IMG/VR virus record: IMGVR_UViG_2778261223_000024
Span: 1 to 11,692 of that record
Reading direction: 5' to 3' (one strand)
DNA: 11,692 bases
Origin: a virus
Lineage: Duplodnaviria; Heunggongvirae; Uroviricota; Caudoviricetes
Below, one piece after another: positions 1 through 11,692 of the stretch. Each line of letters starts with the position of its first letter. Position 1 is the stretch's first letter. Below the pieces are notes generated by a model. The model searched no databases and was not told the DNA's origin. It saw only the letters and a program-made list of their open reading frames with translations. The position numbers and the translations under genes were made by a program.

Positions 1-1362
1 ATGTTTAAACCGGAACTCCTTTCCCCGGCGGGAACGCTGAAAAATATGCGTTACGCTTTCGCTTATGGCGCAGATGCTGTTTATGCGGGCCAGCCGCGTT
101 ACTCCCTGCGTGTGCGCAACAACGAATTCAACCACGAAAATCTTCAGCTCGGCATTAATGAAGCCCATGCGCTGGGGAAAAAGTTTTATGTCGTGGTCAA
201 CATTGCACCGCACAACGCCAAGCTGAAAACCTTTATCCGTGACCTGAAACCGGTGGTGGAAATGGGGCCGGATGCGCTGATTATGTCTGATCCAGGGCTG
301 ATTATGCTGGTGCGTGAGCACTTCCCTGAAATGCCGATCCACCTCTCGGTGCAGGCTAACGCCGTGAACTGGGCGACGGTGAAATTCTGGCAGCAAATGG
401 GACTGACCCGCGTGATCCTCTCTCGCGAGCTGTCGCTGGAAGAGATTGAAGAGATTCGTAATCAGGTGCCGGATATGGAGATCGAGATCTTCGTTCACGG
501 CGCGCTGTGCATGGCCTACTCCGGTCGCTGCCTGCTCTCTGGCTATATCAACAAGCGCGACCCGAACCAGGGCACCTGCACCAACGCCTGCCGCTGGGAG
601 TACAACGTCCAGGAAGGGAAAGAAGATGACGTTGGCAACATCGTACACAAGTACGAGCCGATTCCGGTGCAAAATGTTGAGCCGACGCTGGGTATCGGCG
701 CACCAACTGACAAAGTGTTTATGATCGAAGAAGCCCAGCGTCCGGGCGAGTATATGACCGCGTTTGAAGATGAGCACGGCACTTACATCATGAACTCGAA
801 AGATCTGCGCGCCATCGCCCATGTAGAACGCCTGACCAAAATGGGCGTGCATTCGCTGAAAATCGAAGGCCGTACCAAATCTTTCTACTATTGCGCACGC
901 ACCGCACAGGTTTATCGTAAAGCTATCGATGATGCCGCTGCGGGCAAACCGTTCGATACCAGCCTGCTGGAAACGCTGGAAGGTCTGGCGCATCGTGGCT
1001 ATACCGAAGGTTTCCTGCGTCGTCATACTCACGACGATTATCAGAACTACGAATACGGTTATTCAGTTTCTGACCGCCAGCAGTTTGTTGGTGAGTTTAC
1101 CGGTGAGCGCAAGGGCGACCTCGCGGCGGTAGCGGTGAAAAATAAATTCTCCGTTGGCGACAGCCTTGAGCTGATGACGCCGCAAGGCAACATTAACTTT
1201 ACCCTTGAGCACATGGAAAACGCCAAAGGTGAAGCTATGCCGGTCGCACCAGGCGATGGTTATACTGTGTGGCTCCCGGTCCCGCAGGATCTTGAGCTAA
1301 ATTACGCGCTCCTGATGCGTAATTTCTCCGGGGAAACCACGCGTAACCCCCACGGTAAGTGA
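1..1362 (+). CDS. yegQ: U32-family peptidase-like protein YegQ/TrhP (tRNA U34 hydroxylation), complete 453 aa
   Basis: ATG at 1..3, stop TGA at 1360..1362, uninterrupted 453-codon frame. The protein reads as the E. coli YegQ/TrhP U32-family protein (recall, not searched), and it sits directly upstream of cyaR as in E. coli K-12. Confidence 0.9.
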   Translation: MFKPELLSPAGTLKNMRYAFAYGADAVYAGQPRYSLRVRNNEFNHENLQLGINEAHALGKKFYVVVNIAPHNAKLKTFIRDLKPVVEMGPDALIMSDPGLIMLVREHFPEMPIHLSVQANAVNWATVKFWQQMGLTRVILSRELSLEEIEEIRNQVPDMEIEIFVHGALCMAYSGRCLLSGYINKRDPNQGTCTNACRWEYNVQEGKEDDVGNIVHKYEPIPVQNVEPTLGIGAPTDKVFMIEEAQRPGEYMTAFEDEHGTYIMNSKDLRAIAHVERLTKMGVHSLKIEGRTKSFYYCARTAQVYRKAIDDAAAGKPFDTSLLETLEGLAHRGYTEGFLRRHTHDDYQNYEYGYSVSDRQQFVGEFTGERKGDLAAVAVKNKFSVGDSLELMTPQGNINFTLEHMENAKGEAMPVAPGDGYTVWLPVPQDLELNYALLMRNFSGETTRNPHGK

Positions 1363-1415: not shown

Positions 1416-1446
1416 AGCTGCATTTATTAAGGTTATCATCCGTTTC

Positions 1447-1533
1447 GCTGAAAAACATAACCCATAAAATGCTAGCTGTACCAGGAACCACCTCCTTAGC
1501 CTGTGTAATCTCCCTTACACGGGCTTATTTTTT
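1447..1533 (+). ncRNA. cyaR: CyaR (RyeE) Hfq-binding small RNA, about 87 nt
   Basis: The sequence GCTGAAAAACATAACCCATAAAATGCTAGCTGTACCAGGAACCACCTCCTTAGCC...CCCTTACACGGGCTTATTTTTT matches CyaR as I recall it. It contains the CCTCCT anti-Shine-Dalgarno motif and ends in a GC stem plus T-run terminator (about 1509..1533). Placement between yegQ and ogr is as in K-12. Confidence 0.85.
1507..1533. other. P2-type attachment-site core (prophage/host junction) overlapping the CyaR terminator
   Basis: The reverse complement of 1507..1533 is AAAAAATAAGCCCGTGTAAGGGAGATT, which matches the 27-bp P2 att core as I recall it. It sits where host DNA meets the ogr-proximal prophage end. Confidence 0.55.
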
Positions 1534-1635: not shown

Positions 1636-1854
1636 TTACATCCACATAATTTGCTGCCCTGACGGCAACGGGTGCGGCCTTACGGCGTGGACTTCTCCCG
1701 GCTTCACGATGTATCGCTGTACCGACTCATAAGTGATGAACGTGGCGCTGCAATTCACGTTCTGACACTGGTGATAACGCTCTTTTGTCGTGTCAGTGAT
1801 ATAGCGACTTGTACGCGCATGTGCGGCATGCTGGCATAAAGGACAATGAAACAT
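1636..1854 (-). CDS. ogr: Ogr, zinc-finger late-gene transcription activator (72 aa)
   Basis: The internal ATG at 1854..1852 gives MFHCPLCQHAAHARTSRYITDTTKERYHQCQNVNCSATF..., a Cys4 zinc-finger protein matching P2 Ogr as recalled. There is a GAGGTG Shine-Dalgarno upstream. The 93-aa track ORF begins at an upstream TTG and is probably an over-extension. Confidence 0.9.
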   Translation of the reverse strand: MFHCPLCQHAAHARTSRYITDTTKERYHQCQNVNCSATFITYESVQRYIVKPGEVHAVRPHPLPSGQQIMWM

Positions 1855-1888
1855 CGCGAGCACCTCTTCCGGTTTTGTTGATGGTGCC

Positions 1889-1917
1889 ATTTTAGTTAAT
1901 TTACCCTTATAAAACAA
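1889..1917 (-). promoter_or_regulatory. Candidate sigma70 promoter for ogr
   Basis: On the minus strand, TTGTTT (-35, 1917..1912), a 17-nt spacer and TAAAAT (-10, 1894..1889), about 35 nt upstream of the ogr ATG. Read by eye only. Confidence 0.3.
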
Positions 1918-1935: not shown

Positions 1936-3099
1936 TCACTCATCATCTTCTGTTTCGTACTCCACATCAGAAAGCCTGACCTCAAGCTCTAAGGACGTCG
2001 TGAAGCCGCTATTATTCAGAAAATGTGTCACCTTAGTGATTGTCCAGTCCTGCTCGTCTATGACGCGCTTAAAGCCTGATACTTTGACCGGCGTTTCCGT
2101 GTAAATATCTGCCCGACCGGTAGCCAGACTGATGGAAAACTCCGCAACGCCCCGTTGCAGCTTATCCCACTTCGCCTGAGCGGCGCGCATGGCCTGCGCT
2201 TTCGTGGCATATACCGTGGTCAGGGCAAAAACGTTGTCAGCTTCACCGGCCATGTATTCACCTTCGCGCGCTTCCGGTACTTTTGGCGCTTTCTTCTGCG
2301 TGACTGGTTTCGCTTTCGGGTGCTCCAGTGCGCGCAGGTGTTTTTCTTTCTTTTTGCGTTTCAGTTTTACCTTCTGCTTTTGCGGCTTCGGGTCTTTGGT
2401 GTGAAGCCACTTTGCCGTTACGCCGGTATAGGCTCCACGGTCAGCAATCGCAAAATGGTGGCGGTCGCCGTCGCTGCGGGTTATGGTGACCTGCGGGATT
2501 TTTTTACCGCTGGCCGTCACCCCCTGCCCCGCTTTGAGAAACAACAGTTTTCCCATTTTTACCGAGACCTCACCGCCGTTGCGTTCTGCAAGACGGGTCA
2601 GGAATTTCGCATCAGACTCCTGCGACTGGTCGATGTGCGGGATTTTAATTCCGGCCAGTGACGGAGCGACACTGGCTTCCAGCCTGTTACGGGTGGCTAT
2701 CGCCTCAACAATCGCACCGAGCGTGGTGTCATGCCAGGAGCCTTCCCGGCGGGAATTGAGCGTCCCGCGAAAATCTGCACTCCGGGCGCGGATGGTGACC
2801 ACATCCGGTGCGCCCCGGTGTTCAACCTCATCAACGGTAAATTTCCCTTTGCATACCAGGGCAAAACCTTTCCAGCCGATATACACCGTCAGGACAGCGC
2901 CACGAACCGGCAGCCCGACCTGCCCGTCGGCATCGTTCAGTTCAATATCAAGCTGGTCAGCCTCAAAGCCCCGGTTATCCGTCAGGGTCATGCTCATCAG
3001 ACGGTCGCTGATATTGCCGGTAATATCCCTGCTGTCGAGCATCAGCATGTAATCCGGCGTCAGCGTACTGCCTGCATCAAATGTCAGCGCATCCAGCAT
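1936..3099 (-). CDS. D: Tail protein D (late control gene D / Phage_GPD family), 387 aa
   Basis: ATG at 3099..3097 overlaps the U stop (TAATG). Length and position are as in the P2 FETUD operon. It contains a Lys-rich linker. Confidence 0.9.
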   Translation of the reverse strand: MLDALTFDAGSTLTPDYMLMLDSRDITGNISDRLMSMTLTDNRGFEADQLDIELNDADGQVGLPVRGAVLTVYIGWKGFALVCKGKFTVDEVEHRGAPDVVTIRARSADFRGTLNSRREGSWHDTTLGAIVEAIATRNRLEASVAPSLAGIKIPHIDQSQESDAKFLTRLAERNGGEVSVKMGKLLFLKAGQGVTASGKKIPQVTITRSDGDRHHFAIADRGAYTGVTAKWLHTKDPKPQKQKVKLKRKKKEKHLRALEHPKAKPVTQKKAPKVPEAREGEYMAGEADNVFALTTVYATKAQAMRAAQAKWDKLQRGVAEFSISLATGRADIYTETPVKVSGFKRVIDEQDWTITKVTHFLNNSGFTTSLELEVRLSDVEYETEDDE

Positions 3100-3578
3100 T
3101 ATCCCGCCCCCGTCATACCCGTGAATCTGGTCGCCATACTGCCAGCCTTACCGATGAGCGATTCCGCCTGTTTACCGATATCGCCATAAAGCGCGGCCAG
3201 TGATTCATCAACGCGGGTGAGCGACAGCGTAAAATCAATTTTCCGGGGTGTGCCGTCTGCAAAGAAAATACTCCCTGTTTCACTCACTCTGCTGATGACA
3301 TACATGCCGTAAATCATGCCGGTGCCATCCAGCAACGGCCACGCCCGGCCTTCCTCTGCCATCAGCCTGAGCGTGGTCATCGTCAGCTTCCCGCCGGTCA
3401 GTTCGGGATAAAGCACGCCGGCAAGCGTCATGTTTTCCTCACCCACACCGAGAAACTGAAAGGCATCCCGTTTACCGATACGGGAATTTGACGGCCAGCG
3501 ATAATCTGATTCGCGCTGCATGGTCTGGTGTGGCAGTGTCTGGCGCATAAAAACAAACATACCTAACGCGAGCATCAT
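3099..3578 (-). CDS. U: Tail protein U, 159 aa
   Basis: ATG at 3578..3576 preceded by a strong AAGGAGG Shine-Dalgarno that lies inside the 3' end of T. Length and synteny match P2 gpU. Confidence 0.85.
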   Translation of the reverse strand: MMLALGMFVFMRQTLPHQTMQRESDYRWPSNSRIGKRDAFQFLGVGEENMTLAGVLYPELTGGKLTMTTLRLMAEEGRAWPLLDGTGMIYGMYVISRVSETGSIFFADGTPRKIDFTLSLTRVDESLAALYGDIGKQAESLIGKAGSMATRFTGMTGAG

Positions 3579-3592
3579 TTTTCGTCACCTCC

Positions 3593-6040
3593 TTAACCGT
3601 CATGCATCATGCTGGCACGGGCGCGCGCACGTTTATCCCGCTCGTATTTTTCGAGCGCATCCTGTAACTGGCGGTCGAGCTGAGTCCCCGGCGCAGTACC
3701 GCCCGTCAGGCTGATGTGATATTCGTTTTTACTCTGGTCCACATAAGAGCGGCCAGCCGGTGCCGTGACCGGCTGATAAGCCTGATAGCCTGCATAAGAG
3801 CTGGTCGCCGGAATATAACCACCGGTGCCATACGTGGCGGCATTAGTCCTTGCGGCGGTCTGGTCAAGTGTGTCTGACTCTTTGTTGATAACACCGAGTT
3901 TTTCCAGTACCCAGTCAATACCACTGCGCAGTTTGTTGAACGCATTAAGCGGCAGCATCAACGCGTCAGCCAGTGCCTGCCCGAACATGACGCCCGTGTC
4001 ACGGCAACGGTTCAGGGTGTCCTGTGTGGCTTTAACCGGGGCAATCAGGTTTTTAAACCACTGCCACGCGGCCTGTAACTTTTCGCCCAGCCAGTCAAAC
4101 ACCGGCTTAAGTGGCGTGAACAGTTCCCCCACCGGCGCAAATGCCGCTTTCAGCCCTTCAACCACACCGCCGAAGAATGCGCTGACAGGCTCCCAGTATT
4201 TACGGATAAGCAACGCCCCGGCGACAATGGCGGCCACCACGGCCACAACCGGCCAGCTAATCGCACCGATGGCCGTCATAACAGCACTGCCAACCGTCGT
4301 GAAGATTGCCCCCATTGCGCCTGCTGCCGCGATAATAGCATTGATGCCGGTGATAACCGGCCAGGCTACGAGGCCAATGGCACCAATGATGCCAGTCAGC
4401 GCCAGTGCACCACCGGCAATAATGCCGATGGTTGACGCCAGTGATTTGTTTTTCTGGATCCAGCCGTCGAGTTTTAACACATACATTGTGGCCGTCTGCG
4501 TGAGCTTACGCAGTGCGCCTTCCTGCTGGTCAAACAGGTCAGTCCCCACCGCCTCATAAGCGGACTGAAACTCCTTAAAGTCACCGCCGAGATTGTCCTG
4601 CATGATATTTACCAGCTCTGCGGTCTTCCCGTCTGAGACTTTAAACGCAGCGGTCAGTTTGTCCAGCTTTCCGGTTGAGGCGGCAGTCATCAGCACAGCG
4701 GCGGATGAGCTGGCCTCCTCCCCGAAAATGGTTTTCATGTATTCAGCCTGCTGGGCAGTACCGAGCCGGTTTTTCTCAAAACTGGCCTGCATTTCTTTCA
4801 GAATGGTAAATACTGGTCGGGTATTCCCCTTAGTGTCTGAGGTTTTCACGCCAAGCTCTTTGAGTGCATCCCATGCTTTTCCCGTCGGTGCCTGCAGGCG
4901 ACTTAACACGGCACGGCTTCCCGTCCCCGCCATTGAGCCTGTGATTTTTGCATCATGCAGCGCCCCGACCATTGCGGCGGTTTCTTCAATGCTGACACCG
5001 GCATTTTTTGCCACAGGTGCGGCATAGGTCAGCGCATCGCTCATGCCGTCAAAATCGGCGGCAGTTTTGTTCATCGTCATGGAGAGAACATCCCCGATAT
5101 GAGCGACCTTATCGTTTGAAAGCTGAAAGGCGGATTTCATCCCCATCAGCAGGGCGGCGTTTTCTTCCATCGTGCGGCGGTTCGCCAGCGCCATATTCAG
5201 CGTGACCGGCGTTGCCGCCTGAATGGCATCAACATCCCCACCGGCTTTCGCAATGATAATCTGTGCACCGGCTGCATCATCCGCCGAGGCGGCAGTATTG
5301 TCACCGAGCTGGCGCGCCTGCTTGCGGAGTGCGGCCATTTCGGCGGAGTCTTTTGCCACACCGAGCACGGCCTGCAATTCTGAGTTTTTCTGCGCAAACT
5401 CATAACCGGGCATCAGTATCTTAACACCGGCCATCGTTCCCGCCGCCGCAATCCCCACTCCGGCAGCGCCTACTGAGGCCATATTTCCGGCCAGTTCCTT
5501 TCCTGCCTGATAACGCTGTTTGACTGCGTTAAGTTTTGCCTGTTGTGCACTGACACGCGCCAGTGCATCGCGCTGACGGTTAAGTTGTGCGGTGGTTTCA
5601 CTGATACGGTTTTTCAGCCCCTGCTCATCATGTGCAAGATTGCGGGTATTAATTCCCACAGCGGCCAGTTCCCGCTGCTGGCGTTTAACAGAATCCGTCA
5701 GGCGGTTATATTTCGCCTGTAAGTCCTCCGCCGCACGCTTTGCGGATTCCAGCACTTTCGCCTGAGCACGGGTTGGACGTTCGGTATTTTTAAACTGTGT
5801 GGCAAGGGCTTCGGCCTCCTGCCGTGCCTTTTCAAGTGCATGACCAGTCACGGCGAGCTGTGCACTGGTCTTGCGGAATCCCTCAATACGGGATGCGTGA
5901 CCGTTCAGCTCGCGCAGTGATTTTTGTGTTTCCCGGATATCCCCCGACAGCGACTTACTCGCTGTACGGATGGATTTAAACGGGCGGGATGCCTGGTCAA
6001 CAGCCCTGAGCAATACCTGTAATTTTACATTGTTACTCAT
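3593..6040 (-). CDS. T: Tail tape-measure protein T, 815 aa
   Basis: Long Ala/Gln-rich coiled-coil N-terminal half and Gly/Ala/Ile-rich hydrophobic segments, typical of tape-measure proteins. The 815-aa length is that of P2 gpT. The start ATG at 6040..6038 overlaps the E' stop. Confidence 0.9.
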   Translation of the reverse strand: MSNNVKLQVLLRAVDQASRPFKSIRTASKSLSGDIRETQKSLRELNGHASRIEGFRKTSAQLAVTGHALEKARQEAEALATQFKNTERPTRAQAKVLESAKRAAEDLQAKYNRLTDSVKRQQRELAAVGINTRNLAHDEQGLKNRISETTAQLNRQRDALARVSAQQAKLNAVKQRYQAGKELAGNMASVGAAGVGIAAAGTMAGVKILMPGYEFAQKNSELQAVLGVAKDSAEMAALRKQARQLGDNTAASADDAAGAQIIIAKAGGDVDAIQAATPVTLNMALANRRTMEENAALLMGMKSAFQLSNDKVAHIGDVLSMTMNKTAADFDGMSDALTYAAPVAKNAGVSIEETAAMVGALHDAKITGSMAGTGSRAVLSRLQAPTGKAWDALKELGVKTSDTKGNTRPVFTILKEMQASFEKNRLGTAQQAEYMKTIFGEEASSSAAVLMTAASTGKLDKLTAAFKVSDGKTAELVNIMQDNLGGDFKEFQSAYEAVGTDLFDQQEGALRKLTQTATMYVLKLDGWIQKNKSLASTIGIIAGGALALTGIIGAIGLVAWPVITGINAIIAAAGAMGAIFTTVGSAVMTAIGAISWPVVAVVAAIVAGALLIRKYWEPVSAFFGGVVEGLKAAFAPVGELFTPLKPVFDWLGEKLQAAWQWFKNLIAPVKATQDTLNRCRDTGVMFGQALADALMLPLNAFNKLRSGIDWVLEKLGVINKESDTLDQTAARTNAATYGTGGYIPATSSYAGYQAYQPVTAPAGRSYVDQSKNEYHISLTGGTAPGTQLDRQLQDALEKYERDKRARARASMMHDG

Positions 6041-6460
6041 TCGTGTTTCCGCTTCGCCGGAGCGCCTTTTCGCGCCATGTGATGAGTTCGGTCAGGCTCA
6101 TGGGATACAGTTCTGATGGCGGCCAGTGAAATATCACTGCCACATCCGCCATCAGGTCATCGACCGACAGATTTTTCGGAAACGTCACTGCACCGAGTTC
6201 GGCGACAAAAAACCGACCACCTTACCGGCCAGCGCCACAAGGTCAGGCAGTTCCAGCGCGGCGACTTCCTGCTCGGTCAGCATCGGTGCCGTCATGCGCG
6301 GCAGCACCTTAATCAGTGCATCGACTTCAGAGTTCGCGACCGCAGCCAGACTGACACCGCGCAGCGTCCCGGCACTGGGTTTCATCAGCGTGACCTGTTC
6401 GATGACCTGCTCACCACGCTTGACCGGATTGTCCAGGGTAATCACATTTTCTTTGTTCAT
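6033..6460 (-). CDS. E': E+E' tail assembly chaperone made by programmed -1 frameshift (predicted 142 aa)
   Basis: Slippery heptamer T_TTT_TTG (minus strand, 6212..6206) in E frame GGT-TTT-TTG. After the -1 shift the frame stays open for 57 codons (VAELGAVTFPKNL...RRSGNTNE) and stops at TAA 6035..6033, overlapping the T start (ATGAGTAA). The predicted 142-aa total matches P2 E+E' as recalled. Confidence 0.7.
6185..6460 (-). CDS. E: Tail assembly chaperone E, 91 aa (zero-frame product)
   Basis: ATG at 6460..6458, stop TGA at 6187..6185. The protein ends ...GKVVGFLSPNSVQ and carries the slippery site near its 3' end. Confidence 0.85.
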   Translation of the reverse strand: MNKENVITLDNPVKRGEQVIEQVTLMKPSAGTLRGVSLAAVANSEVDALIKVLPRMTAPMLTEQEVAALELPDLVALAGKVVGFLSPNSVQ

Positions 6461-6517: not shown

Positions 6518-7036
6518 TCACAGGCCGATATTGCGGCGGTGTTGCTCCAGCCGGTCGACGCCGTTCACCTTCTCAATCATGTTGATGGTGTCGATTTCGA
6601 CCAGCTCCTTACCGTCCATCGTCAGCCGGAAATAGGTGCAGACCACGGAGATTTTCGACTCGGTGTCTTCTCCCTGTTTACCCTCGCCGGTGTCGATTTC
6701 TTTCTGACGTCCACGCATGACCACTTCGACGGCCACCGTTTCGCCGGTATCGTCGCGCTGGTAAGAGCCTGCAAAACGAATCGGCACGGCATCCACACCG
6801 GTTGAGGCGTAAAGCTCCCAGATAACCGAATCCGGGAAGCCACCGAGCGACCACTCCATTGACAGCGCATCGTCATCAAGGCCGAGGTCTACCGGTGCGC
6901 TGCCGTTCATCCCCGCACCGCGATAGTTTTCGAGCTTACGGGTCAGTTTTGGCAGCGTGACGGACTTTGCAACGCCCTGATAGCTGTAGCCGTTCAGAAA
7001 GACGTTCATTAACTTGAGTTTGCGCGGCATTGCCAT
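6518..7036 (-). CDS. FII: Tail tube protein FII, 172 aa
   Basis: ATG at 7036..7034 with a GGAG Shine-Dalgarno in the 12-nt gap after the FI stop. Length and position match P2 gpFII. Confidence 0.9.
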   Translation of the reverse strand: MAMPRKLKLMNVFLNGYSYQGVAKSVTLPKLTRKLENYRGAGMNGSAPVDLGLDDDALSMEWSLGGFPDSVIWELYASTGVDAVPIRFAGSYQRDDTGETVAVEVVMRGRQKEIDTGEGKQGEDTESKISVVCTYFRLTMDGKELVEIDTINMIEKVNGVDRLEQHRRNIGL

Positions 7037-7048
7037 CGGTCAGGCTCC

Positions 7049-8239
7049 TTAATTGCTGTTAACCGAGGTGACCAGATTTGCCAGGTATTTATCGGTAATA
7101 CGCTGGCGCAGGGTCAGGTTTTCAAGAGGAGGCACCGGAGTATAGTCGTAGTCGATATACAGTTTTCCGGCCTTGAGGGTTTCCGCATCGTTGGATTCTT
7201 CGCTGAACCAGCAGGTCGCATCCACGATATAGCCGTTTGTTTTCAGCTCACGGAATTTGGCATTGATGCCGTCAACGATGTCGCGAATCAGCGTTGCGGT
7301 GATGGGCTTGTCCACCGCCCACATGTGCGCCTCAGCCATCGTGTCGGCCAGCACCTGCGCGGTGCGGGTGTAGTTTTCAAAGAGGAACAGCGGGTCATCA
7401 GAGCAGGTACGGTTACCCCAGAAGCGGAAACCGTCGCGGCGAATCAGCGTAGTGACGCCTGACTCATTAAGCAGGTCAGCATCGGTGCCGGACTCCTGCA
7501 AATCCCAGAATACAGAGGCGCTGATGCCGGTAACACCGTTCACCCCAACGTTGGACAGTGTTTTATGCCAACCCTGCTCCTGGTCGATTTTAGCGCGCAG
7601 ACCCAGCGCACGGGCGGTGGCATACGCGGTGGCGGTGGTACTGGTGACCGTATCCCATGCGAGGAAATCCGGCCAGATGACCATCAACTCACGCTGGCTG
7701 AAATTCTGGCGGTAGGCTTTCACCTCGGAAATGGTCTTACAGCCCCATGCGCTGATATATCCGAAAGCACGCAGCTTCTGACAGACGGATGCCAGTGCAA
7801 CAGCCACCTCTTTGGTATCCAGTCCCGGCACACCGAGAATACGCGGTTTAACACCGGTTACCGACTCCGCCGCCAGCAGGGCTTTCAGTCCGGTGTACTG
7901 ACCGTTTTCGTCGGTGGTGCCGATGATATTGGAAACGGTCTGCGCGAGTTTCGTTTCCTCGTCGTCGCCGGTGCCGTCTTCCACACGCACGACAACGGTG
8001 ACCGGTTTTGACTGGTCGGCGATGGCCTGCAACGATGCCGCCAGCGTGCCTTTTTTACCGGCCTTTGCAATTGCGCTCTGCACATTGGTAATCAGCACCG
8101 GTTTATTGAGGGGGAAGGTTTCCGCATCCGCATCGCTGGCCGTGCAGACCATGCCGACAATGGCCGTGGATACGGTGGAAATGACGCGGGTGCCGTCGTT
8201 AATCTCCAGCACCTGCACGCCGTGATGATAGTCACTCAT
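7049..8239 (-). CDS. FI: Contractile tail sheath protein FI, 396 aa
   Basis: ATG at 8239..8237 with a GGAG Shine-Dalgarno about 8 nt upstream. The 396-aa length and the position as first gene of the F-E-T-U-D operon match P2 gpFI. Confidence 0.9.
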   Translation of the reverse strand: MSDYHHGVQVLEINDGTRVISTVSTAIVGMVCTASDADAETFPLNKPVLITNVQSAIAKAGKKGTLAASLQAIADQSKPVTVVVRVEDGTGDDEETKLAQTVSNIIGTTDENGQYTGLKALLAAESVTGVKPRILGVPGLDTKEVAVALASVCQKLRAFGYISAWGCKTISEVKAYRQNFSQRELMVIWPDFLAWDTVTSTTATAYATARALGLRAKIDQEQGWHKTLSNVGVNGVTGISASVFWDLQESGTDADLLNESGVTTLIRRDGFRFWGNRTCSDDPLFLFENYTRTAQVLADTMAEAHMWAVDKPITATLIRDIVDGINAKFRELKTNGYIVDATCWFSEESNDAETLKAGKLYIDYDYTPVPPLENLTLRQRITDKYLANLVTSVNSN

Positions 8240-8333
8240 CCGTTTAACTCCGTGGTTAATGGGTGCAACTATTTTCCGTTGGGTAGTACATGAGACGCTA
8301 TTTGACCTGGCTGGTCAGTGGATGAAACAACAG
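8240..8333 (-). promoter_or_regulatory. Region expected to hold the Ogr-dependent late promoter (PF-like) for the tail operon
   Basis: About 95-bp leader upstream of FI and downstream of a terminator. It contains the dyad TGACC-N5-GGTCA and an imperfect TGT-N12-CCA element. P2 late promoters are reported to carry a TGT-N12-ACA dyad near -55. The exact site is not resolved by eye. Confidence 0.3.
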
Positions 8334-8363
8334 ATAAAGAAAAGGCGGGCAATCTGCCCGCCT
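8334..8363 (-). terminator. Rho-independent terminator after the 230-aa cargo gene
   Basis: Minus-strand stem AGGCGGGC/GCCCGCCT with loop AGATT followed by TTTTCTTTAT. It separates the cargo transcript from the FI late promoter region. Confidence 0.55.
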
Positions 8364-8498
8364 GTCCTGATTTGTACACACTCATTTTCCGACTGACAAT
8401 TTACATAGCCAAAACGCTATCAAATCTGACAGCCTGTTTTGAGCGAAGAGGAACCTGAGATTGTGGTATGCTAATTTATGGGGAGCAGGTCAATTGTA

Positions 8499-9191
8499 TT
8501 AGTTATCTTTTGGCCTTTCTTTATCCCATTTCTTTACAGTGGTCTGATACCACTCTTCACGTGCTCGTTGTTCCTCTGCTCTGTCACTTGAATTATAGTT
8601 GTCTGTTTTAATTTTTTTGCTTCCCTGGGAAATCGGCCTCCAGTCTTCTCTAATCTTTTTCATCTGCTCAGCTATCTGTGTCATTGGACTCCTTGCACCT
8701 AAGTAGCTAACCCCCTCGAAAGAAGCCATATCATAAGAATACTCATTCCGCTCTCTTTCAGTTGAGCCCGGCTGTTTAGACCAGCTAATACTAACAGAAT
8801 AAACTTGATCTTTAATCTGGTCATACTTACAAAGACTGCTGTTGAGGGAATGGCCGTTTTTCAATACGCTAACCTTGCTAAATGGTATACCTTTATTTTT
8901 TCTATGTTCTGCATTAACCAGTGGGGGATTAAATTCGACTTCAATATCATAGGCTGGGGCATTTCCGGTATTAGCAATATTGATATCAAAATAAAAAGCA
9001 GCCCAAGAATTTGGTTCAAGAGTCACAACGACATGAGGTTGAACTGATGCGTCAACCATCCTTTTTGTCTCGTCTGCTAATAGCCTTGTTACTCTCCACA
9101 AGAAAAATGTAGCAACTGCTGTTAGCAATGCTGCCAAAGCGGAGATAAGTGTACTTACTGTGTTTATATGCTCTGCGATAAATTCGATCAT
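8499..9191 (-). CDS. Hypothetical membrane-anchored protein, 230 aa (cargo gene 1); family not recognised
   Basis: ATG at 9191..9189 with an AAGGA Shine-Dalgarno 6 nt upstream. One hydrophobic helix at residues about 12..33 (TVSTLISALAALLTAVATFFLW), then a roughly 150-aa soluble domain and a highly charged K/E/R-rich C-terminal tail. AT-rich codon usage unlike the adjacent tail genes. Confidence 0.75.
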   Translation of the reverse strand: MIEFIAEHINTVSTLISALAALLTAVATFFLWRVTRLLADETKRMVDASVQPHVVVTLEPNSWAAFYFDINIANTGNAPAYDIEVEFNPPLVNAEHRKNKGIPFSKVSVLKNGHSLNSSLCKYDQIKDQVYSVSISWSKQPGSTERERNEYSYDMASFEGVSYLGARSPMTQIAEQMKKIREDWRPISQGSKKIKTDNYNSSDRAEEQRAREEWYQTTVKKWDKERPKDN

Positions 9192-9612
9192 GAGTTGTCC
9201 TTGGGGGCGTACTAATTGTTTTCAATACTAAAATAGCGCCGGGCTTGAAAAATTGCACACTTATGGTTCGATTTACCTCAACAGTTAAGGCTTCTACTTC
9301 CCCCATGCACCTCACCCAGCCCAAGACTGTATGAGGTCTGACAAAGAACTTCCTGACACTTGAAAACGAGGCAACGGCTAGGGTTTCTCGTAGGGCAAGG
9401 ATTGAATACGAAGCCTGTATATTGCTCCGCAAACGCTGCTGAGGGCAGTTTAAATGTTGGGCGTTTATGTAGCCTTTCACTCACCAGCATGAGTTCAATG
9501 TCTGTGAGTTACCGACAACAATATAAAGGGGGTGGCATCATCATATATCCAAGCTAGAGTCAAATCCTCTAACTGGTTTTATGATCAGTGTCAATTGTTT
9601 GATTATTGAACG

Positions 9613-9641
9613 TTTACGAAGCAGCACGGGAGCCATATAAC
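9613..9641 (+). promoter_or_regulatory. Candidate sigma70 promoter of the two-gene cargo operon
   Basis: TTTACG (-35, 9613..9618), 17-nt spacer, TATAAC (-10, 9636..9641). The predicted start near 9648 leaves a roughly 35-nt leader before the 9683 ATG. Confidence 0.45.
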
Positions 9642-9682
9642 TAATGGGCAGGTATAAGCCTGTATCACGAGGAATCAGTATA

Positions 9683-9862
9683 ATGGCTGATGATAAGACC
9701 AAAATCGGTACCCCTGACAATGATTTAATAAGTATCAAACAGGATTACGAGAGACGTGATTGGGCTGAAAAGTTTGGAGTTAGCGAGGCCAAACTTGTTC
9801 AAGCCGTACAGGCTGTAGGTCATTCGGCTAAGAAAGTACAGGCATGGCTTAAAGACCATTAA
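9683..9862 (+). CDS. DUF3606-like small protein, 59 aa (cargo gene 2)
   Basis: MADDKTKIGTPDNDLISIKQDYERRDWAEKFGVSEAKLVQAVQAVGHSAKKVQAWLKDH resembles the short DUF3606 family as I recall it (N-terminal MxDDKxK and a YExRxWxxKFG core); unverified. GAGGA Shine-Dalgarno 9 nt upstream. An alternative in-frame ATG at 9644 (72 aa) would lie upstream of the predicted transcription start. Confidence 0.7.
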   Translation: MADDKTKIGTPDNDLISIKQDYERRDWAEKFGVSEAKLVQAVQAVGHSAKKVQAWLKDH

Positions 9863-9868
9863 TATATG

Positions 9869-9893
9869 AGCGCCTTTCTAGGCGCTTTTTTCT
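9869..9893 (+). terminator. Intra-operon rho-independent terminator / attenuator
   Basis: Stem AGCGCC/GGCGCT (9869..9874 and 9881..9886) with loop TTTCTA followed by TTTTTTC, lying between the two cargo genes. Confidence 0.55.
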
Positions 9894-9914
9894 TTGTCCT
9901 TTGGGAGATGATTT

Positions 9915-10193
9915 ATGGCTAATAATTTATTTATTACTTACGACCTCATTAAAACGAAAGATTATGCGGCTGTGTATGATGCAATTAAATCTTTAGGAAA
10001 TTGGGCTTTAACAACTGAATCGAACTGGTATGTTAACTGTAGTTACTCTGCCGAGGATGCAGCCAAAATTGTGAGGGCGGTCATGGATAGTGATGATAAG
10101 CTTATTGTTGTAGACGCAACCAATAACTCAGCTTATTGGTACAATCTCTCAGATGAAGTTAGTAACCAAATTCTGACTGAGTGGAACAAGTAA
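9915..10193 (+). CDS. Hypothetical small protein, 92 aa (cargo gene 3); family not recognised
   Basis: ATG at 9915 with a GGGAGA Shine-Dalgarno 6-7 nt upstream, stop TAA at 10191..10193. The residue pattern suggests alternating strands and helices (LFITYDL / YAAVYDAIKSLG / WYVNCSY / AAKIVRAVM / KLIVVDA / AYWYNL), reminiscent of small ferredoxin-like folds; this is inference from primary sequence only. Confidence 0.7.
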   Translation: MANNLFITYDLIKTKDYAAVYDAIKSLGNWALTTESNWYVNCSYSAEDAAKIVRAVMDSDDKLIVVDATNNSAYWYNLSDEVSNQILTEWNK

Positions 10194-10195
10194 TT

Positions 10196-10220
10196 AAAGG
10201 GGGTGGGTAGCCCCCTTTAA
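10196..10220. terminator. Bidirectional terminator hairpin closing the cargo operon and the G transcript
   Basis: Perfect 8-bp stem AAAGGGGG/CCCCCTTT with a 7-nt loop, flanked by A/T-rich sequence on both sides. It sits where the plus-strand cargo operon and the minus-strand G transcript converge. Confidence 0.5.
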
Positions 10221-10396
10221 TTCAGAAACTATCATTACTGGGTTAATTCTTTCATCTTTGCTCCCTTGCTATATGTCCTGAAAGCGTCCTTTTTAGCCTT
10301 CTGCTCAGTATGTCCGGTAATGGCACAGAGCGGACTGCCAGATTAGGCTTTACTCTGTGCCATAGATATGTAATCTCACACCAGAGCTTATACAAC

Positions 10397-10924
10397 TTAT
10401 TGCGGCATTTCCGGCCATTCAGGATTTGCAGGATCCACACGACTGACCAAAACGCTGTAGCGTTCCCAAGCCTCCAGCCGTGTGCGCTCCTCCTCTGTTG
10501 CCATATTCAGCCTGACAGCGCGCTCCAGCGGCAAAATCACGGATTCAGCATCTGCAAGAAGTCTGGCTTTCCGAATTTCTGCCTGCTGTTGTAATTCCTC
10601 TGCCGTATAAATGCGTTTAATCACTTTGCCGTCCTTAAACATCCAGTTCCCTGAAATGTCCGCCCGTCGGTTAGCAGTAATATCCGGCACTTCAACAACA
10701 CTTAATCCATCCGGTCTGATAGCTGTCACATCCTTTTCTACATAGCGGATAATATTATCTTTGTCGTACGCTATTTTTATCGTGTCATCAGCAAAATACT
10801 TTTGTTCTTCGTACCAGTTCTTACCATCTTCTGTAAAAAACCAGACAACATCAAAGTCCTTTGTCAATTGATATTGTTCAACCGTTTTTGGATTACCTGC
10901 CGTTATATTTATCAAATGCTGCAT
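10397..10924 (-). CDS. G: Tail fibre assembly protein G, 175 aa
   Basis: ATG at 10924..10922 three nt after the H stop. The C-terminal ...[38 protein letters not shown] is typical of P2-type tail-fibre assembly chaperones, and the length matches P2 gpG. Confidence 0.85.
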
Positions 10925-10927
10925 AAA

Positions 10928-11692
10928 TTATACCTGCGCCACGTTGTACCATGTCCCGTTAATGTATTTCTGAACCGGTCTGTAATATACGCCACCAATG
11001 TTATCGGCAGAGTTTGAGCCGGTATCCTGAACAATAATGCCGGAATATACACACCCGGACGGTGCCTGATGTGTCCATGTCATGCCATTGTTCGCAGGTT
11101 TGTATGTGGCAGCACCACCAAGCCGGATATCCCGGACATAGCGTGAATCAAAATTACTATAGTTAGATGGTGATACCTGCCCGTTAACAGCAAAAGTGAT
11201 GCTGTTATCTGTATTTCTCTGACTGTAAAAATGCCAGCCTGCATCATCACCTAATTCAGCCACCACCGGACGACTTGCGTTTCCCCACAAATTGAATGCG
11301 GCTTCCTTCGTGGATGTATTGCTGCTGCTGACCGTGAACTTTTTCCCGCTACCGGCACGTACTTTGGTACTTGAGGCAATATCACCAGTAACACTCAGGC
11401 CATGCCCCATTGACACTCCGCCATTAGCGTTATTGATAGTCAGCGGCCTTAAACCGTTCCATGTCCCAAATTTATCACCAGAGGCCGTCAGCATTAAATA
11501 TGTGCTGCCACCATCATTCCTGATAAAGAATCCATAATTGCCATAAGCAATGCGCAGACCATTAGCACTGAGTAGACTGGCCCCCTGAATCTCCAGACAA
11601 CCAGTATCACTTAAATAAGTGATAGTCTTAATACTAGTTTTTAGACTAGTCATTGGAGAACAGATGATTGATGTCTTAGGGCCGGAGAAACG
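10928..11692 (-). CDS. H: Tail fibre protein H, C-terminal part (5' end lies beyond the window)
   Basis: Stop TAA at 10930..10928. The frame is open to the window edge (no stop in the 13 codons upstream of the first in-frame Met), so the gene is truncated by the window. Gly/Ser/Asn/Thr-rich beta-type composition, typical of receptor-binding fibre tips. Confidence 0.8.
   Translation of the reverse strand, partial: RFSGPKTSIICSPMTSLKTSIKTITYLSDTGCLEIQGASLLSANGLRIAYGNYGFFIRNDGGSTYLMLTASGDKFGTWNGLRPLTINNANGGVSMGHGLSVTGDIASSTKVRAGSGKKFTVSSSNTSTKEAAFNLWGNASRPVVAELGDDAGWHFYSQRNTDNSITFAVNGQVSPSNYSNFDSRYVRDIRLGGAATYKPANNGMTWTHQAPSGCVYSGIIVQDTGSNSADNIGGVYYRPVQKYINGTWYNVAQV

Follow-up and report, generated by a model that had tools for sequence, protein, structure and literature searches.

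A mosaic three-gene cassette in the Z/fun slot of a P2-like prophage, with an integrase fossil and a candidate membrane exclusion protein

The hotspots of P2-like prophages, which a large share of Escherichia coli genomes carry, have been a repeated source of new immune systems. The canonical Z/fun slot, between the tail genes G and FI, holds in P2 the gene of Fun(Z), a lysogenic-conversion function which excludes phage T5. The present work concerns the occupant of this slot in a P2-like prophage contained in a window of 11,692 nucleotides (nt), the whole stretch of DNA analysed (IMG/VR record IMGVR_UViG_2778261223_000024), where three small genes, here called A, B and C, lie within positions 8240-10396. 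The original prediction had presented them as a single candidate anti-phage system. The cassette is best explained, with a confidence slightly above even, as mobile mosaic cargo in which A alone would be a membrane exclusion or abortive infection (Abi) protein, C a nuclease-like protein and B a separate partner or regulator.

The defence cargo of P2 and P4 hotspots is likewise variable and inserted between conserved core genes, and its fast swapping between near-identical phages follows the same logic as this cassette; the validated systems, however, come mainly from the gpA-gpQ (old/tin) position and from P4, other than this slot (PMC9122126; PMC13586616). Rousset et al. covered the gpA-gpQ hotspot only (PMC9122126). 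Recent surveys depict the tail-gene hotspot as mixed-purpose and defence-bearing (PMC13586616; bioRxiv 10.1101/2024.10.15.618418), in line with the original prediction, which had placed the island in a hotspot for exchangeable cargo at the P2 Z/fun position. This placement is borne out by the location between FI and G, by the boundaries of the backbone and by the late-promoter region pF, all of which agree with P2. The span 8240-10396 had been given exactly, being the complete gap between the ATG of FI (8239) and the end of the G stop codon (10397). Alignment with P2 shows that homology ends at 8446 and picks up again at 10312, so the exchangeable part is 8447-10311; in the upstream flank, the annotated transcription start of the P2 F operon maps to approximately 8263-8265 and the end of its activator site to approximately 8307. 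The interval proved variable across P2-like phages, as had been expected: the slot is empty in 186 and holds an invertase and tail-fibre cassette in pro483, a 368-amino-acid (aa) gene in fiAA91-ss, a 299-aa gene in Wphi-type phages, degenerate remnants in 11W and the 528-aa Fun(Z) in P2. With Fun(Z) the cassette shares the slot and the backbone flanks, pF included, and B and C share its orientation; Fun(Z) is, however, one single protein, to which A, B and C bear no similarity in BLASTP searches (all E > 1, best E = 3.6). The three proteins resemble none of the other slot occupants either.

The cassette itself is already known, having been sequenced in 2003 in P2-EC53 and noted again in 2019 in phage R18C. 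Over the whole 2157 nt, the DNA is 98.3% identical to AJ512682 ('Bacteriophage P2-EC53 proviral Z-region', deposited 2003), where a protein identical to that of gene A is annotated as 'ORF1, putative lysogenic conversion protein', and 98.7% identical to R18C (MN016939), whose describers counted the same open reading frames (ORFs), located at the fun(Z) position, among morons without an assigned function (PMC6823313). Cassette, slot and ORFs are the same in the two cases, with nothing substantive different; mosaic origin, integrase fossil and function are reported in neither. In AJ512682 the DUF3606 gene (gene B) matches at 1473-1649 in three different frames, probably through sequencing frameshifts, and these would account for ORF1 being its sole annotation. 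For the inverted repeats marked in the same record, corresponding here to 8365-8455 and 10312-10424, complementarity is not above chance (local score 25 against 18.5 +/- 3.7, with 61 of 1000 shuffles at least as good); the 'left inverted repeat' overlaps 10312-10396. A search of the literature and its supplements for the protein accessions, DUF8453 and P2-EC53 returned no record of function or testing.

The mosaic structure of the cassette is recorded in its B-C portion. Positions 9572-10324 share 78% identity with an integrative element of enterobacteria (L011-L015), where a tyrosine integrase of the DUF6538 type is convergent with B and C, and the homology extends about 130 nt beyond the stop codon of C. 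The minus strand of this extension (10324-10238) encodes AITGHTEQKAKKDAFRTYSKGAKMKELTQ, closely preceded by stop codons, a fossil which is 79% identical to residues 360-388 of the integrase of the element (AITGHTEQKAK..FRTYSKGA; tblastn E = 4.9e-10). This integrase stump is kept in 14 of 14 copies in the P2 slot and in three of the five lambdoid copies examined, and its presence beside C identifies B-C as a captured fragment of another integrative element. Moreover, identity to the donor element (L011, L120) falls from about 90% in the upstream region and B to 66-72% in C and the stump; the drop, near 9930-9990, indicates a further breakpoint and different histories for B and C. On these alignments, the cassette appears to be a recombinational assembly of two or more pieces, probably three, each of which circulates independently. 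One would be gene A, encoding a stand-alone inner-membrane protein with a near-invariant transmembrane and juxtamembrane helix; another, gene B (DUF3606), accompanied by an upstream region and a terminator of its own; the last, gene C together with the 3' stump of the integrase gene which adjoins it in the donor element.

Once assembled, the cassette has moved among diverged P2-like phages and into a lambdoid prophage. The G proteins which flank it in different phages (L100-L113) are 38-100% identical to that of the window, so receptor-binding genes and cargo reassort independently. A complete cassette (8440-10380, 95% identity) is present in a Rac-like lambdoid prophage in IMG/VR (L114-L118), between hokD and the lygF/replication region, and the sequence comparison suggests a transfer from a P2-like phage into a lambdoid one. 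The lambdoid copies also carry about 70 nt of P2 backbone downstream of G, up to position ~10380. The core of the cassette was found in 99 of 5426 complete E. coli genomes (~2%), with the P2-side junction in 93 of the 99.

Outside this lineage A, B and C are independently distributed, so the trio is one recent assembly. B and C stand beside A in one of 67 species-level A loci (in Pantoea, the same cassette), and 65 of the 67 lack both; the 622 neighbouring ORFs of 68 A loci fell into 555 clusters, none of them spanning more than five loci. The 44 viral C loci comprise 19 copies of this cassette, one combination of B, C and an integrase, and 24 loci with neither A nor B, two of which lie beside other integrases. 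Solo C genes are often located in the early regions of temperate phages, and distant DUF3606 genes occur without A and C. The only independent A-C adjacency found is that of Pseudomonas machongensis, where a C-family gene (hmmsearch E = 8.5e-14) is followed, 31 nt downstream on the same strand, by an A homologue. The two genes of this pair are at 7526-7945 (C family) and ~7977-8699 (A) of locus L066, with an IS5-like transposase nearby. The idea of a single three-gene system is consequently not supported: co-occurrence is confined to this cassette lineage, the B-C portion holds the integrase fossil, and a conserved terminator parts B from C. Nor does co-occurrence favour a conserved toxin-antitoxin pair of B and C, similar to VapXD, as B accompanies C only where C is at least 71% identical.

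Gene A matches a single profile, phrog_11802, of unknown function, and its product is 100% identical to WP_042002648.1, a 'DUF8453 domain-containing protein' in RefSeq/PGAP; the Pfam set searched gave no match and apparently lacks a DUF8453 model. Homologues of about 230 aa and 45-50% identity are found in Xanthomonas, Pseudomonas, Bordetella, Caulobacter, Sphingomonas and Rhizobium. In an AlphaFold model with a predicted local distance difference test score (pLDDT) of 85, residues 2-49 form a helix and residues 54-154 a beta-sandwich of seven strands, followed by two helices at the C-terminus. Conservation is highest in the N-terminal helix (TAVATFFLWRVT..LA.ETKRM), where the stretch with W32, R33, E41 and T42 is invariant, and the protein has a single hydrophobic segment, at residues 12-30. 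Lysine plus arginine around this segment amounts to 0.2 before versus 3.6 after, with more after than before in 50 of 50 aligned homologues, so the globular domain is predicted to be cytoplasmic. The model depicts a predicted single-pass inner-membrane protein with a short external N-terminus and a cytoplasmic beta-sandwich. Fold searches with it returned nothing informative, and neither sequence searches with A, B and C nor the family profiles of B and C gave anything meaningful in the PDB. Comparison with a Klebsiella homologue gave nonsynonymous (pN) and synonymous (pS) divergences of 0.19 and 0.75, denoting purifying selection. A 234-aa gene of Yersinia ruckeri, upstream of a DUF3606 gene, was tested as an A homologue and is not homologous.

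The contexts of A extend over P2-like and lambdoid prophages, a P4-like satellite, an integrative and conjugative element (ICE) and integrase-flanked islands, and point to conflicts between mobile elements. Homologues in islands of Klebsiella and Xanthomonas adjoin integrases, without B or C. The ICE copy is found in the maintenance region of the element, on a Pseudomonas megaplasmid, among DUF736, ParB, DUF932 and RepA/ParA genes, and a TIR gene lies near it which is related (50% identity, E = 1e-41) to the CAP12/PCTIR TIR gene immediately downstream of an A homologue in Rhizobium; the association with TIR genes is limited to these two independent settings. In Rhizobium brockwellii (L006, 5430-7657) the homologue is placed between a DUF6680 gene and the CAP12/PCTIR TIR gene, all on the same strand, and the DUF6680 gene likewise begins with a membrane helix; the trio may be a small defence island. 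In a P4-like satellite of E. coli (L144-L147, gene at 5001-5573) a variant of A lies beside an AbiJ_NTD4 gene and the alpha primase, a position listed as a P4 defence hotspot (PMC13586616). This variant, which is the commonest among the relatives of A in E. coli (71% identity, 190 aa), is truncated by an insertion sequence: the N-terminal membrane helix is absent and IS3-family transposase genes precede it, and judging from its sequence it is probably inactivated.

Single-pass membrane 'moron' proteins of prophages, such as HK97 gp15 and lactococcal Sie2009, exclude superinfecting phages. A is likewise small and prophage-borne with one N-terminal membrane helix, and it also occupies a tail-region moron slot with its own terminator and recurs on many unrelated mobile elements. 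No sequence or fold link to these proteins was established, however, and the globular domain of A is predicted to be cytoplasmic, a location which would fit an intracellular sensor or Abi effector at least as well as a block of DNA entry.

B belongs to the DUF3606 family (Pfam PF12244, E = 4e-18, 65.3 bits where the cut-off is 24.3, aligned over all 54 profile positions), members of which are also present in ordinary chromosomal contexts. The start at 9683 is the one used by PGAP in a 99.9%-identical copy, and a 72-aa version from 9644 has no ribosome-binding site. Between B and its copy in the integrative element the ratio of nonsynonymous to synonymous substitution rates (dN/dS) is 0.035, a value indicating purifying selection. 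No solved relative of B was found when its sequence and family profile were compared with the PDB.

C matches the profile phrog_1090, and its model (pLDDT 94) has a β-α-β-β-α-β-β-α ferredoxin-like fold resembling Cas2. Two residues are invariant in 50 homologues, D10 and S36, which the model places at the end of β1 and in the β2-β3 turn. In the proposed active sites of Cas2, VapD and BPSL1038, an Asp is located at the end of β1, with a Ser/Thr at the β2-β3 turn in the BPSL1038 type (PMC10491678), and D10 and S36 fall at these positions. Unlike Cas2 and VapD, C has no cas1 or CRISPR array nearby and no conserved VapX-like partner; cas genes and repeat arrays are absent from the window, and elsewhere the neighbours of C are integrases or phage early genes. 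Divergence from distant homologues (pN 0.14, pS 0.81) indicates purifying selection here as well.

The genes form two divergent units, as stated in the original prediction, A on one side of the 491-nt spacer and B-C on the other, and the three ORFs are intact. The prediction had also credited the island with terminators and a promoter of its own. Terminator-like hairpins do follow A, B and C. The one after A falls inside the conserved backbone flank. B and C are adjacent and co-directional, separated by 52 nt which contain a strong, conserved terminator, its stem and T-run being kept in the integrative element despite a changed loop. The hairpin after C may terminate in both directions, serving C as well as the V-operon (H-G) transcript; in P2 the putative terminator of the V operon occupies the corresponding site, beside the 3' end of fun(Z). 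The integrative element is homologous from 9572 onwards, and 9572-9682 constitutes a conserved region upstream of B. A palindrome, ACTGGT-N6-ACCAGT, is located about 95 nt before B (9573-9590; L011 5655-5672). The integrative element has it in perfect form and the window in an imperfect one (ACTGGTTTTATGATCAGT), and it may serve as an operator. Rfam, searched with the whole window, returned CyaR alone, outside the island, with no match in the intergenic region, and folding of the 380-nt leader of A gave z = -0.04, with no evidence of a structured RNA. A cassette variant in IMG/VR (L112, 1242-1553, and L113), with A 92% identical, carries an extra 312 nt in the A-B intergenic region at ~9418, which marks another mosaic junction.

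In the proposed mechanism the genes would be accessory functions expressed from the prophage and engaged in conflicts between mobile elements. A would act alone at the inner membrane, where its conserved membrane helix and its cytoplasmic domain would serve to sense or block an incoming phage; the invariance of the helix suggests a specific membrane interaction or an oligomer, and the beta-sandwich is a candidate sensing or interaction domain. C would be a small dimeric nuclease-like protein with a Cas2/VapD-type fold, and B a small partner or regulator, separately transcribed and terminated. A defence function is something we infer from context, with A as a reasonable candidate.

Several results weigh against this explanation. 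PADLOC-DB 2.0, run on all three proteins, produced nothing significant (no match for A; B, E = 0.03 to PDC-M03B; C, E = 0.019 to Cas2_II), in agreement with the earlier statement that no known defence system was recognised in any of them; NCBIfam gave no match. The 149 neighbours of A scanned with PADLOC and Pfam include some methylases and ATPase-Toprim proteins, in keeping with a conflict-type context, together with many mobile-element genes and housekeeping genes; they are mostly ordinary genes, too heterogeneous to claim defence-island enrichment. The promoter attributed to the island was not detected: a sigma-70 consensus scan of 8100-10500 found 0 sites, against 4.9 expected in shuffles, which makes expression of the cassette in the lysogen an assumption. 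C scores below the cut-off against Pfam CRISPR_Cas2 (E = 0.15, 12.7 bits versus 23.8), 23 of 50 members of its family match Cas2 weakly (best E = 0.008), and the family profile did not find Cas2 in the PDB. The sequence link being sub-threshold, C is taken as a possible nuclease with a Cas2/VapD-like fold and not as Cas2, the modelled resemblance holding at fold level only. Finally, the move of the whole cassette into a lambdoid phage and the P. machongensis tandem leave room, with low probability, for a functional link between A and C.

Among the other explanations, cargo without an antiviral role is possible though doubtful. A would then alter the envelope or host physiology, and B-C would be an addiction or stabilisation module, or a regulatory leftover of the donor element; the label 'putative lysogenic conversion protein', the A homologues in ICE maintenance regions and among housekeeping genes, the integrase adjoining B and C in the donor element, the ordinary chromosomal DUF3606 genes and the description of the Z/fun hotspot as mixed-purpose (10.1101/2024.10.15.618418) are all in its favour. 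Several independent contexts of A are, however, recognised defence hotspots or lie beside defence-type genes, and published priors favour defence: of eight unknown P4-satellite cargo loci picked at random, six reportedly gave protection against phages (PMC13586616). Furthermore, C occurs solo in many phages with no adjacent co-oriented partner, which is hard to reconcile with a toxin needing an antitoxin.

One integrated anti-phage system, with A as membrane sensor or effector, C as small nuclease and B as regulator, is unlikely. The cassette does move as a unit among diverged P2-like phages and into the lambdoid one, always with all three genes, each under purifying selection, and the C-A tandem of P. 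machongensis, 31 nt apart, is independent of it; yet physical linkage over 2 kb is sufficient for joint transfer, and the 65 A loci, the 24 viral C loci and the distant B genes mentioned above speak against any co-occurrence outside the cassette lineage. A is without any conserved neighbour, the integrase stump marks B-C as a captured fragment, and divergent orientation together with the conserved B/C terminator argues against co-regulation. It is very improbable that C, alone or with B, serves the phage in counter-defence, either as a Cas2 mimic interfering with spacer acquisition by Cas1-Cas2 or as a small nuclease or nucleic-acid binder of early infection. The similarity on which this relies is at fold level, within a very common ferredoxin-like fold for which ACT-like and MTH1187-like proteins score equally well, and P2-like prophages seldom carry recognisable anti-defence genes (28 of 1511; PMC13586616).

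The features of the window are collected in Table 1. The window starts in the E. coli chromosome and continues into the P2-like prophage, read on the minus strand. CyaR separates the peptidase-U32 gene from the ogr end of the prophage, which is hence integrated right beside cyaR. Regarding composition, the predicted AT-rich insert between P2-like tail genes was recovered, with 41.7% GC in 8240-10396 and 41.1% in the core (8447-10311) versus 55.9% from D through FI. The accompanying claim of GC-rich flanking tail genes holds on the FI side and fails on the other, where G and H (10397-11653) have 45% GC, so only towards FI is the contrast strong; an earlier hand count of ~65% for T was too high, the measured value being 54-59%.

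Table 1. Coordinates of genes, regulatory elements and backbone segments in the 11,692-nt window.
Feature	Position	Strand	Remarks
Peptidase-U32 gene	1-1362		E. coli chromosome
CyaR/RyeE small RNA	1445-1530	+	Rfam RF00112, 100.7 bits
ogr	1636-1917	-	
D	1936-3099	-	
U	3099-3578	-	
T	3593-6040	-	
E/E'	6033-6460	-	
FII	6518-7036	-	
FI (tail sheath)	7049-8239	-	ATG at 8239
P2 backbone upstream of FI, pF late-promoter region	8240-8446	-	83% identity to P2 17441-17700
Intrinsic terminator, 3' of A and upstream of pF	8343-8363	-	9-bp stem, 7 G-C pairs, TTTTCTTTAT tail
Exchangeable cassette, P2-EC53-type Z region	8447-10311	.	P2 homology breaks at both ends
Gene A	8499-9191	-	230 aa, intact ORF
Divergent intergenic region	9192-9682	.	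491 nt between A and B
Gene B	9683-9862	+	59 aa, intact ORF; alternative start 9644
Intrinsic terminator between B and C	9868-9887	+	8-bp stem and T-run
Gene C	9915-10193	+	92 aa, intact ORF
G+C-rich hairpin just 3' of C	10196-10217	.	U-tracts weak, both strands
Integrase fossil, DUF6538-type tyrosine integrase	10238-10324	-	last 29 codons; tblastn
P2 backbone downstream of G	10312-10396	-	within 77%-identical P2 match extending through G
G (tail-fibre assembly)	10397-10924	-	stop codon ends at 10397
H	from 10928	-	

The cassette, which has remained 'hypothetical' since the 2003 deposit and occupies a less-studied tail-gene hotspot, is a reasonable but unsurprising candidate for new defence genes. 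A and B-C are to be viewed as independent modules rather than as one system, and the breadth of DUF8453, a family of lone mobile-element genes from Escherichia to Rhizobium and Sphingomonas at ~45-50% identity, makes A the best single target. The integrase fossil and the lambdoid transplant offer a concrete and datable case of cargo assembly at a hotspot and of its passage between unrelated phages. It is improbable, though conceivable, that DUF8453 represents an unrecognised and very widespread single-gene anti-phage protein of Proteobacteria, whose near-invariant membrane helix and cytoplasmic beta-sandwich would form a membrane effector triggered by infection, joined in some lineages by C as a stand-alone Cas2-fold nuclease, a pairing hinted at by the P. 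machongensis tandem and the joint transfer in the cassette. If a phenotype were found for A, the large DUF8453 family would gain an annotation.

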